Below are positions 28,527-35,726 of a DNA stretch of 35,902 nt, one piece after another. Both the position numbers and the translations under genes were made by a program. Under the pieces are notes generated by a model. The model was not told the origin of the DNA. It made no database searches and saw nothing but the letters and a program-made list of their open reading frames with translations. Position 1 is the first letter of the stretch; each line of letters opens with the position of its first letter. This DNA comes from a bacterium (GTDB lineage Bacteria > Patescibacteriota > Minisyncoccia > UBA6257 > Colwellbacteraceae), in the NCBI GenBank assembly GCA_043808035.1, contig JAZDFH010000014.1, forward strand, positions 1 through 35,902, read 5' to 3'.

Positions 28527-28562
28527 ACTATACTGAAAACGCGATCGCGTTTTCAGTATAGT
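28527..28562. repeat. 36-bp perfect palindrome, copy 1
   Basis: actatactgaaaacgcgatcgcgttttcagtatagt is self-complementary around GATC. It lies 65 nt after the trxB stop and 24 nt before a TATAAT (28586-28591) that precedes the PaaX-like gene. Confidence 0.95.
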
Positions 28563-28611
28563 GAAATAAAAGTATTAAAAGGCGTTATAATAGAAAAAGA
28601 TTATATTGATT

Positions 28612-29181
28612 ATGAGGAGAGGAGAAATTATTAAAAACATTTTGGAAAATTTGGAAGCGGGGATTTCGGATAGTATTGATTTATTCGAAGCAATTTTGAT
28701 TTCCGGGTATGGTGCATCGTATCGTACGATAGACTCGAATTTAACAAAAATTCAACTTAATCATGGTATTTCTGATACTGCAAGAGAAAGAAAAAAGCAA
28801 AATTTTTATTGTCTGCTTTCCAAGCTTAAAAAAGAAGGATTTGTAGAAAAAAATGAATCAAACTATACACTTACACGGTTAGGAAGGTGGAAGCTCAAAC
28901 AGTTAAGCCTTTATTTGCCGTTTAAAACTTCATATAAGCAAGAAAAGGATAGCTCTTTCAAGATAATTATTTTCGATATCCCCGAAAAAAAGAGGTATAA
29001 GCGAGATTGGCTCCGATCTGTTTTAACAGAATTAGGTTTTCAAAAATTGCAACGCAGTGTATGGGCTGGGAAGAAAAAAGTGCCTGAAGATTTTATTAAT
29101 GACCTTAAAGAATTTCAGCTTCTCGAATATATAGATATTTTTGCAGTTACTAAAACAGGTACTATTAAGGTAATAACATAG
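28612..29181 (+). CDS. PaaX-like (COG3327-type) transcriptional regulator: N-terminal wHTH plus C-terminal alpha/beta domain
   Basis: The C-terminal block FKIIIFDIPEKKRYKRDWLRSVLTELGFQKLQRSVWAGKKKVPEDF matches the I-x-FDIPE...R..L...GF..LQ.SVW pattern of PaaX-family proteins. The N-terminal region ...FYCLLSKLKKEGFVEK... is wHTH-like. The start is ATG 28612 or TTG 28606. Confidence 0.55.
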   Translation: MRRGEIIKNILENLEAGISDSIDLFEAILISGYGASYRTIDSNLTKIQLNHGISDTARERKKQNFYCLLSKLKKEGFVEKNESNYTLTRLGRWKLKQLSLYLPFKTSYKQEKDSSFKIIIFDIPEKKRYKRDWLRSVLTELGFQKLQRSVWAGKKKVPEDFINDLKEFQLLEYIDIFAVTKTGTIKVIT

Positions 29182-35534: not shown

Positions 35535-35690
35535 AACTTGTTCGAGATCTTATTGTAGAGATAAAGAAAACGCGTTTATCCGCTGAAATTTTATGATCGA
35601 TATAAGACATTGAACAGACCCCAAAAGAAGAAATCCGAAAGATGTCATAACTTATCCTTTATTATTGGGGGAATATGATTGTCATCGATT

Positions 35691-35726
35691 ACTATACTGA
35701 AAACGCGATCGCGTTTTCAGTATAGT
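35691..35726. repeat. 36-bp perfect palindrome, copy 3
   Basis: actatactgaaaacgcgatcgcgttttcagtatagt is identical to copy 1. It lies 157 nt after the stop of the giant gene. Confidence 0.95.

Follow-up and report, generated by a model that had tools for sequence, protein, structure and literature searches.

The three copies of a 36-nt palindrome in this DNA probably serve as double-stranded operators of the PaaX-like protein encoded beside them, through which that protein would regulate both its own gene and a downstream target. The window, i.e., the whole stretch of 35.9 kb under study, is a single complete contig, and the copy counts given for it are contig-wide. The arrangement of one regulator gene with palindromes recurs in many uncultivated ultra-small (CPR) bacteria, usually beside a gene for a giant surface protein, and dozens of lineages possess their own dyads of the same length and layout flanking this gene. 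The arms of the dyads change along with the protein, and conservation is concentrated in the outer arms and in the centre, as expected for contacts made by a symmetric dimer. This comparative evidence argues strongly for the idea, raised in a preliminary description of the sequence, that the palindrome is the operator of a repressor which acts as a dimer and may be the PaaX-like protein.

An exact search locates the palindrome ACTATACTGAAAACGCGATCGCGTTTTCAGTATAGT with 0 mismatches at 28527–28562, 29225–29260 and 35691–35726, in agreement with the preliminary description. Its statements that the second copy extends to a 40-nt perfect palindrome and that the flanks are unrelated also hold, the latter because the flanks of the copies have no meaningful similarity to one another. 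Regarding variant copies, which it had proposed to count, the 35.9-kb contig contains no fourth copy with up to three mismatches. None is expected by chance (0 matches in 100 dinucleotide-preserving shuffles), and the relaxed tripartite pattern ACTATACT-N7-CGATCG-N7-AGTATAGT, searched with up to three mismatches, returns the same three copies only. The features of the region are the following:

28527..28562, palindrome copy 1, 36 nt, perfect; proposed autoregulatory operator
28586..28591, + strand, TATAAT, a −10-like hexamer starting 24 nt past the end of copy 1, with 23 bases in between
28606..29181, + strand, PaaX-like regulator gene; gene call of 189 aa from the ATG at 28612, alternative start at 28606
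29183..29306, + strand, four TGCCGAT motifs (at 29183, 29198, 29272 and 29300) on both sides of copy 2
29223..29262, palindrome copy 2, 40 nt, perfect, with the 36-nt core at 29225–29260; proposed operator of the downstream operon
29308..29316, − strand, perfect DnaA-box 9-mer TTATCCACA, one of only two in the contig
29449..29949, + strand, small membrane protein of 166 aa, whose gene adjoins the regulator in 27 loci
29961..35534, + strand, giant secreted/surface protein of 1857 aa with three lamin-tail (LTD) domains
35691..35726, palindrome copy 3, 36 nt, perfect

Copy 1 lies 64 nt 3′ of the thioredoxin-reductase stop codon and 43–49 nt 5′ of the start codon of the PaaX-like gene. Copy 2 is found 41 nt past the regulator stop and 186 nt before the membrane-protein gene, while copy 3 is 156 nt beyond the stop of the giant gene and 176 nt short of the contig end. 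The TATAAT hexamer is where it had been reported; copy 1, which had been thought to cover the corresponding −35 region, abuts the predicted −35 instead. The palindrome itself holds CTGAAA-N18-TATAGT in both directions, with 9 of 12 matches to the sigma-70 consensus (consensus matching only). Upstream sites homologous to copy 1 are present in other loci, and across the loci the dyad end falls mostly 21–100 nt ahead of the next co-directional ORF. A fixed promoter geometry was considered and rejected, since −10-like hexamers have no sharp positional peak relative to the dyads. Clusters of TCGGCAA similar to the four TGCCGAT motifs occur in L015, L066, L076, L080 and L084.

The regulator consists of a winged helix and a Cas2-like domain. 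Its description as PaaX-like is confirmed by a match of residues 113–185 to PF20803 (PaaX_M; E = 3.2e-14, 53.2 bits vs a cut-off of 24). Against the PaaX equivalog model TIGR02277, which has 279 positions, the 189-aa protein scores 21 bits vs a cut-off of 264.55, and the domain profile search returns no match to the C-terminal ligand-binding domain of PaaX. The Cas2 model TIGR01573 is matched with 26.7 bits vs a cut-off of 24.5, over 37 residues only. Foldseek places E. coli PaaX (8a39) as the best PDB match of the regulator model, followed by Cas2 proteins, and many Cas2 structures match with a probability of 0.9–1.0. Cas2-type motifs are also recognizable, namely (I/V)FD(I/V)PE ... LQ.SVW with an invariant Asp in FDIPE. 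By analogy with PaaX, the Cas2-like domain most likely has a role in dimerisation. A reading of the locus as a defence system was rejected, as PADLOC yields nothing beyond Cas2-domain matches. The family is large: members with E ≤ 1e-30 fall into at least 730 clusters at 50% identity, and one metagenome collection contains at least 562 of its loci. Our literature search found no description of either the family or its palindromes, and look-ups by exact protein sequence retrieved no record for the regulator, with either start codon, or for the thioredoxin reductase.

Neighbouring genes form a conserved cluster. The small membrane protein and the giant LTD protein come after the regulator in 23 of 27 loci, and the N-terminal domain of the giant protein is kept beside the regulator and membrane-protein genes in 17. 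The three LTD domains, already recognised in the preliminary description, are matched with E = 3.1e-39, whereas the label "PLC" given there to the N-terminus receives no support from Pfam, NCBIfam or a PDB sequence search. No paa genes are found near the regulator, the neighbours being thioredoxin reductase, the membrane protein and the LTD giant protein. This cluster, the inversion and the tripartite site anatomy described below go beyond what had been predicted earlier.

We identified about 90 homologous metagenome loci in which a PaaX-like gene of about 190 aa lies between 34–40-nt zero-loop dyads on both sides. Counting as a dyad any site with at least 14 of 17 symmetric pairs in 80 metagenomic loci (437 kb), we find a density of 3.54 per kb up to about 130 nt from either gene end vs 0.10 per kb elsewhere, a 35-fold difference. 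Upstream of the gene, 48 of 74 loci have a dyad; downstream, 55 of 76 do. When sites are defined by centre and outer arms only, 122 adjoin regulator genes. In the syntenic locus L002, whose regulator is 49% identical to the one studied here, palindromes occupy the same three intergenic positions; they are 36 nt long and have the same outer ACTATACT and centre CGATCG, while the mid-arm differs and is still symmetric. L002 and L076 have a third copy at the corresponding position. The palindromes of L016 and L019 agree at 35 of 35 positions, and the regulator genes of these two loci are 72% identical in DNA.

These data bear on whether the palindromes are a generic genome-wide element of the REP/BIME or HIP type clustering here by accident, which we hold to be hardly credible. 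The copies are indeed identical and intergenic, in L012, L013 and L016 contigs end or have gaps where palindromes lie, which suggests that such repeats break assemblies, and the 24-nt core has one match among GTDB genomes (L001), inside the polA ORF of an unrelated MAG and with different outer arms. This match is plausibly a chance half-site match, about 0.2 being expected by a rough estimate under an assumed number of such palindromes. On the other hand, all three copies fall within 7.2 kb of the contig, the dyads are concentrated beside the gene, and their arms change with the neighbouring protein; those far CGATCG-centred dyads that were compared by eye share the arms of the local regulator's sites. 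The 24-nt core has no match in metagenome and viral contigs. Dispersed, gene-independent copies, as in REP/BIME, are thus not observed within the contig and related loci. A HIP1 origin was likewise rejected, CGATCG being not enriched in the contig (5 observed vs 8.2 expected).

Each site consists of three parts: outer arms of 7–8 nt, a variable mid-arm, and a conserved centre. The outer arms vary between lineages and are common to all copies within one genome; their pairs 13–15 are symmetric in 98–100% of the sites. Of 108 sites, 65 have CGATCG as their centre and 32 a different symmetric hexamer; half-sites are spaced about 28–29 bp centre to centre. Where a genome has two copies, arms and centre are shared and the differences fall mainly at pairs 5–10. 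Among them are 24 pair positions with compensated symmetric changes, vs about 1–2 expected by chance. Such changes are what base pairing, or a mechanism imposing symmetry, would leave behind, and the selection of sites by symmetry may contribute. Among the 122 sites set by centre and arms, the mid-arms are non-symmetric in 66; hence pairing is not obligatory.

Compensated changes would also be produced if the palindromes acted after transcription, as 5′ or 3′ stem-loops of 16–18 bp through which the transcripts of the regulator and of the giant gene are stabilised, terminated or guided to processing of the RNase III type; the protein might bind these stem-loops. We regard this as unlikely. The hairpin of each copy is very stable (z-scores of −6 to −8, −27 to −33 kcal/mol), covariation extends to all 17 pairs in 74 sites, where 96% of the cells are paired, and downstream sites begin 3–100 nt past the stop codon. 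The covariation test is circular, however, because the sites were picked for symmetry. Mismatches on the sense strand are more often G-T than A-C (64 vs 40), an excess that the richness of the sense strand in G+T (GC skew +0.2) can explain. Symmetry is strictest in the outermost pairs and weakest in the mid-stem pairs, the opposite of a stem fraying from its ends, and more than half of the sites defined by arms and centre have no mid-arm pairing. What would be the loop is a conserved self-complementary hexamer, for which recognition of the duplex by a symmetric dimer is expected rather than a hairpin loop. Intrinsic terminators have a GC-rich stem, a loop of 3–8 nt and a T-tract immediately behind the stem. 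A T-rich tail (6 or more T among the 9 nt behind the dyad) follows only 3 of 54 downstream dyads, and the idea of terminators was rejected for lack of such tails; in the contig only copy 2 has a weak one, and ordinary GC-rich looped terminators are used elsewhere. Known RNA families were discarded too, as Rfam gives 0 covariance-model matches at gathering score in the 35.9-kb contig. The REP-type or terminator hairpin that had been offered as an alternative is therefore disfavoured by the local distribution of the copies, the rarity of T-rich tails and the presence of ordinary terminators. Since about half of the sites are without mid-arm symmetry and tails are so few, a symmetric double-stranded site is preferred over a hairpin.

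The dimensions of the sites recall site-specific recombination. In a recombination reading, crossover would take place at the palindromes, which are of lox/dif size and have a symmetric spacer, and would allow the regulator gene to be inverted, excised or moved, perhaps with the Cas2-like protein working on the sequences that flank its own gene; we consider this very unlikely. In the L002/L018-20 clade exactly the inter-palindrome segment is inverted relative to the thioredoxin-reductase, membrane-protein and giant-protein genes. The site (34–36 bp, with inverted arms of 14–15 bp and a core of 6 bp) is close to loxP/FRT in size, among loci with an asymmetric centre the two copies are mutually inverted in L075, L082 and L085, and the Cas2-like motif FDIPE retains its invariant Asp. 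Against this, a single inversion event suffices on the NJ tree, and homologous recombination between 36-bp inverted repeats alone is enough to cause it; recurrent inversion was rejected, NJ tree and parsimony requiring only one event. The identical protein P0004 occurs in 16 contigs and has the same orientation in all six places shown, and thus gives no sign of active switching. The regulator/membrane/giant cluster is co-inherited across deep divergence, which argues against mobility. No recombinase or transposase is present among the ORFs scanned, the two copies in L003 are direct repeats, and 97 of 108 sites have a symmetric spacer. Alternatively, the winged-helix Cas2-like protein might recognise its flanking palindromes as extruded cruciforms or hairpins, the Asp acting at CGATCG, which would make the locus a self-acting invertible or mobile cassette or a DNA-structure-dependent switch. 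This proposal, to which we give a still smaller chance, would explain why symmetry is perfect, why differences between copies are compensated, why copies are mutually inverted and why the inversion ends exactly at the palindromes; if true, the cassette, or a switch that would then be of a new kind, would control giant surface proteins in CPR bacteria.

A further possibility is a role outside transcription, as chromosome-organising, partition-like or replication-linked sites (cf. parS, matS and KorB operators), possibly with DnaA or with GATC/CGATCG methylation. The perfect DnaA 9-mer TTATCCACA lies 47 nt past the 36-nt core of copy 2 and 45 nt past the 40-nt palindrome. Within 300 nt downstream of the regulator gene the DnaA-box 8-mer is enriched about 16-fold (0.87 vs about 0.05 per kb), and in nine loci it is found exactly 4 nt from the dyad. 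The centre of the palindrome contains GATC, and in the L002/L015/L017 clade one flanking site is kept although it sits between convergent genes. We nevertheless deem such a role decidedly unlikely: there is a single DnaA box per locus, neither dnaA nor dnaN is nearby, and the GC skew keeps its sign across the locus, which is therefore not an origin. Moreover, CGATCG is not over-represented in the contig, and the closest relatives of the regulator are transcription factors.

Returning to the operator model, the protein would probably act as a dimer whose two winged-helix domains read the 7–8 bp outer arms with a lineage-dependent specificity. Contacts to the central (A)CGATCG(T) would come from a conserved portion of the protein or from a different conserved factor, leaving the 6-bp mid-arms between arms and centre largely free to vary. 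Binding to copy 1 would lead to autorepression of the regulator gene, and binding to copy 2 to control of the operon of the small membrane protein and the giant LTD protein. Copy 3 would close the unit, either as a partner for looping between the flanking sites or as the operator of the next gene. The perfect symmetry probably goes back to template switching ("quasipalindrome correction") at a site that had dyad symmetry beforehand. Several observations speak against an operator. A perfect symmetry of 36–40 nt in three identical copies exceeds that of normal operators, a site is retained between convergent genes, where no promoter is expected, and the half-site spacing differs from the 33 bp of PaaX. 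The same holds for the compensated symmetric differences between copies of one genome, the absence of a sharp −10 position relative to the dyads and the core inside polA, for which chance is plausible though not certain.

To our knowledge, almost nothing is known about transcriptional regulation in Patescibacteria/CPR. Here a large regulator family, as yet uncharacterised, is matched to a predicted cognate site that can be read from the DNA adjoining each gene, and the many natural protein/site pairs constitute a ready-made specificity code. The likely target is the operon of the small membrane protein and the giant LTD-domain surface protein, and giant LTD surface proteins are candidates for host attachment or attack in CPR episymbionts. 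The anatomy of the putative operator is unusual: 34–40 bp long, tripartite and often perfect, it has a CGATCG core, occurs on both sides of the gene and has a DnaA box adjacent.

Among known systems, loxP, FRT and dif, core sites of tyrosine recombinases with an asymmetric spacer, resemble our sites in their length of about 34 bp, inverted arms and 6–8-bp core, and in one clade the flanked segment is inverted. Here the core is mostly symmetric, the ORFs scanned include no recombinase, and one ancient inversion is enough to account for the data. HIP1 (GCGATCGC, cyanobacteria) shares the centre, as the palindrome is centred on GCGATCGC/CGATCG, whereas the unit here measures 34–40 nt and is tied to one locus. 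REP/BIME elements and terminators are also intergenic, hairpin-forming and often 3′ of genes, but our sites are local, covary with the protein, lack the T-tail and have a zero loop with a symmetric centre. Lrp/AsnC-type regulators are autoregulated and bind dyad sites, those of Lrp being about 15 bp. Like the regulator, they have an HTH and, after it, a small ferredoxin-like alpha/beta domain for oligomerisation, with weak fold matches, but there is no sequence-family match and the sites here are tripartite palindromes of 34–36 bp. Cas2 shares the ferredoxin-like fold and the motifs; the domain here is fused to a winged helix, whereas Cas2 stands alone with about 90 aa beside cas1 and an array, and the contig has neither cas1 among the scanned ORFs nor a CRISPR-like array among its repeats. 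PaaX is the repressor of the phenylacetate catabolon in E. coli and Pseudomonas. E. coli PaaX represses its own promoter and binds TGATTC-N27-GAATCA, a site of about 39 bp with spaced inverted hexamers (PMC9493321). The two proteins have in common a winged helix followed by the Cas2-like domain PF20803, with 8a39 as best structural match, and both have widely spaced inverted half-sites. The regulator of about 190 aa differs from PaaX, which phenylacetyl-CoA releases from its operator, in its lack of the C-terminal ligand-binding domain and its score below the TIGR02277 cut-off, and neither the PaaX operator sequence nor the paa gene context is found here. Its sites are distinguished by a conserved CGATCG core, another spacing, an often perfect symmetry and a position on both sides of the gene.

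The 36-mer ACTATACTGAAAACGCGATCGCGTTTTCAGTATAGT occurs at 28527-28562, 29225-29260 and 35691-35726 with 0 mismatches in each case. As the preliminary description held, copy 2 is a perfect palindrome over 40 nt (29223-29262) and the sequences flanking the three copies are unrelated. We found no further copy at ≤3 mismatches in the 35.9-kb window, which spans the entire contig, and none in 100 shuffles; a relaxed pattern that left everything but the outer 8 nt and the centre free returned the same three copies in the window. The features surrounding them are:

27539-28462, thioredoxin reductase gene
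28606/28612-29181, plus strand, regulator gene, 189-191 aa, with PF20803 PaaX_M (E 3.2e-14), Cas2-like motifs and an N-terminal winged helix
29308-29316 and 7438-7446, perfect DnaA-box 9-mer, the only two in the contig
29449-29949, membrane-protein gene, 166 aa
29961-35534, giant-protein gene, 1857 aa, with three lamin-tail domains (LTD)

A TATAAT starts 24 nt past the last base of copy 1, and the palindrome itself contains a weak consensus match, CTGAAA-N18-TATAGT. The AlphaFold model of the regulator (pLDDT 79.6) has E. coli PaaX as its top PDB match, followed in rank by many Cas2 structures matching its C-terminal half; the protein scores far under the PaaX equivalog cut-off. Residues 120-125 (window ~28969-28986) hold an FDIPE motif, whose Asp is invariant in 22/22 aligned homologues and presumably corresponds to the metal-binding Asp found in Cas2 where strand beta-1 ends. 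The PLC-like N-terminus previously attributed to the giant protein was not confirmed by Pfam, NCBIfam or PDB sequence searches.

The window also encodes housekeeping proteins (IleRS, TrpRS, RNase J, phosphoglycerate mutase) and several giant surface proteins. The IleRS-like protein (229-4002, 1257 aa) carries a His_Phos_1 (histidine-phosphatase) domain (residues 548-716, E 3.8e-33) inserted within its class I synthetase catalytic domain. Repeats at the DNA level (17279-17331 vs 23978-24030; 17939-17964 vs 24692-24717) are common to the gene of a 320-aa protein with fn3 and a peptidoglycan-binding domain (17090-18052) and to the part encoding the C-terminus of a 2198-aa giant protein (18209-24805), which suggests a duplicated C-terminal fn3/PG-binding module. 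The G+C content of giant-protein genes (13000-16000, 20000-24000) is 0.45-0.48 vs 0.33-0.42 in the remaining contig, and Thr-rich ACAACNACN tandem stretches lie within such genes at 13033-13400.

Homologues of the regulator were retrieved together with their flanking DNA. The family comprises 5494 clusters (50% identity) at E ≤ 1e-3, 2768 at 1e-10 and 730 at 1e-30; its top matches are all ~185-215 aa long, one homologue is named from Candidatus Colwellbacteria, and no locus contains a second copy of the regulator gene. The syntenic locus L002 has the gene set of the window (Polysacc_synt, glutaredoxin, thioredoxin reductase, regulator, small protein, LTD giant), with palindromes in the three corresponding intergenic positions and in a fourth. 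Its palindrome, ACTATACTATAACACCGATCGGTGTTATAGTATAGT, is likewise 36 nt long and has the outer ACTATACT and the centre CGATCG in common with that of the window; the mid-arm differs in sequence and keeps its symmetry. In other lineages, lineage-specific versions flank the regulator gene on each side; in locus L010, for example, the identical 38-mer TTACTCCACTAATACGCGGCCGCGTATTAGTGGAGTAA stands 30 nt ahead of the gene start and again 31 nt past its stop.

A metagenome scan confirmed a relative of the regulator in at least 562 loci, 80 of which were retained for analysis. With dyads defined as zero-loop sites having ≥14/17 symmetric pairs, their density in these 80 loci is 3.54 per kb within ~130 nt of the ends of the regulator gene vs 0.10 per kb in the other 437 kb. 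Among loci with the respective flank available, dyads are present upstream in 48/74 and downstream in 55/76. Far CGATCG-centred dyads in L017, L037, L049, L052, L069, L076 and L077 have arms that, compared by eye, resemble those of the local sites. A flanking palindrome was expected at L013 2502-2605, L012 10621-10642 (contig end) and L016 2-35 (contig start); as the assemblies break or carry a run of Ns exactly at these places, copy numbers in contigs are probably underestimated. The sole public-genome match to the 24-nt core of the window palindrome is in a Candidatus Paceibacterota MAG (L001, contig DASZRH010000026.1), inside a 46-nt perfect palindrome with other outer arms (1502-1547). This lies in frame within the polA ORF, apparently inside the native 3'-5' exonuclease-like domain, and a second palindrome of 41 nt (1348-1388) is located in the same ORF, 115 nt upstream. 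Together with the homologue from Candidatus Colwellbacteria, this MAG match points to a Patescibacteria/CPR origin for the window.

Across 85 distinct sites, sequence conservation is seen at the three central pairs; outer pairs 13-15 are symmetric in 98-100% of sites with almost zero cross-lineage sequence information, and symmetry is lowest (81-87%) at pairs 5-7. The centre is CGATCG in 65/108 sites, CGGCCG, TGATCA or CAATTG in 32, and an asymmetric CGRYCG in 7. Upstream and downstream copies within a genome have arms and centre in common and differ mostly at pairs 5-10. When the definition is reduced to centre and outer arms, 122 sites adjoin the regulator genes; the mid-arm is fully symmetric in 56 of these, the others having ~2-4 of 6 pairs symmetric. 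The constant features are two 7-8-bp outer arms, ~28-29 bp apart centre to centre, and a self-complementary core, which is the pattern expected of a symmetric dimer on duplex DNA. The palindromes of L016 and L019 are identical (35/35) despite 72% identity of their regulator genes at the DNA level, which points to purifying selection on the site. Conserved arms and core, together with lineage-specific sites flanking the regulator gene, favour the earlier proposal of an operator for a dimeric repressor, and we consider it probable that the palindromes are the operator of the PaaX-like protein itself. A binding site with a non-transcriptional role seems rather improbable.

Alternatively, the symmetry could reflect base pairing, as in an RNA or ssDNA hairpin, or a symmetrising process. 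The palindromes are predicted to fold into very stable hairpins, and between the two copies of a genome 24 pair positions are compensated on both sides (34 are one-sided, 4 uncompensated), vs only 1-2 compensated changes roughly estimated under independence. All 17/17 pairs covary in a test that is circular, the sites having been chosen for symmetry, and the mismatches on the sense strand (64 G-T vs 40 A-C) are confounded by strand composition. However, the central four bases of a hairpin would form the loop and need no self-complementarity, yet the centre is self-complementary; the outermost pairs would be the least constrained, opposite to what is observed. No Rfam family matches the window, which argues against an RNA-only role, and we regard the hairpin as unlikely. 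Our preferred explanation for the perfect symmetry is template-switch 'quasipalindrome correction', by which replication tends to turn sites that already have dyad symmetry into perfect palindromes; selection for a cruciform or RNA hairpin is a possible alternative cause. The terminator or REP element also envisaged in the preliminary description fares poorly, a T-rich tail following only 3/54 downstream sites. Conventional GC-rich looped hairpins follow other genes of the window, and the window shows no over-representation of CGATCG. A generic REP is extremely improbable.

Homologues of the 166-aa membrane protein adjoin the regulator in 27 loci, and those of the N-terminal 500 aa of the giant protein in 17. 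In 23/27 loci the membrane-protein homologue comes after the regulator, is encoded on the same strand and is separated from it by a dyad. The distance from dyad end to the next co-directional ORF is mostly 21-100 nt, and third copies past the long gene(s), like that of the window, occur in L002 and L076. As an operator, copy 1, which lies immediately ahead of the promoter region of the regulator, would autorepress the regulator gene; copy 2, between the regulator and the membrane-protein/LTD-protein operon, would control that operon, and copy 3 would close the unit.

The regulator gene is flipped with respect to the membrane-protein gene in L002 and L018-20, and in L002 with respect to thioredoxin reductase too; the breakpoints coincide with the two palindromes. 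These loci form one clade on an NJ tree, so that a single inversion event suffices; the tree left out L015 and L017, where the regulator is convergent with thioredoxin reductase. A recombination site or cassette end appears very unlikely, since no active switching was seen: the six places shown for the identical homologue protein P0004 all have one orientation. In the inverted clade, one flanking site lies between convergent genes and is still maintained, which suggests that the flanking pair does more than occlude a promoter; it might, for instance, mediate looping, act as a roadblock or form a 3' hairpin.

Other motifs adjoin the sites. In the 300 nt that follow the regulator gene, the DnaA-box 8-mer TTATCCAC has a density of 0.87 per kb, vs ~0.05 per kb elsewhere, and a DnaA box stands exactly 4 nt from the dyad in nine loci (L035, L038, L040, L041, L046, L068, L076, L080, L084). 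Many lineages have the perfect motif TTATCCACA next to the palindrome, on the side of the target genes; a DnaA-box motif so placed also lies at L004 1424. GC skew keeps its sign here and each locus has one DnaA box, so this is no replication origin. Copy 2 is surrounded by four TGCCGAT motifs (29183, 29198, 29272, 29300). Clusters of 3-6 TCGGCAA/TTGCCGA motifs in palindrome-bearing intergenic regions of L015 (1860-1945, spacing ~11-16 nt), L066, L076, L080 and L084 could be sites of a second factor; overall, these motifs are weakly enriched (0.63 vs 0.41 per kb). Elsewhere in the window, a 78-nt inverted repeat, 85% complementary (5161-5238 and 7548-7625), flanks the RNase J gene (5371-7152, minus), each arm containing the hairpin CCCGACTGAA...TTCAGTCGGG. 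Between the arms lie a DnaA box and:

7281-7363, minus strand, tRNA-Leu
7385-7413, plus strand, consensus-like TTGCCG-N17-TATAAT

Taken together, these elements could indicate an unannotated small RNA, ~200 nt long, whose end is the hairpin at 7573-7603.

No description of the regulator family or its palindromes was found in the searchable literature. The system is best filed as a predicted autoregulated PaaX-like repressor with dyad operators. It is unusual for its 34-40-bp tripartite, often perfect palindrome with a conserved CGATCG core, and also for the sites on either side of the regulator gene and the adjoining DnaA box. E. coli PaaX binds two inverted hexamers with 27 bp between them (PMC9493321), and its operators resemble the sites described here in having widely spaced inverted half-sites; the regulator differs from PaaX in lacking the C-terminal domain.
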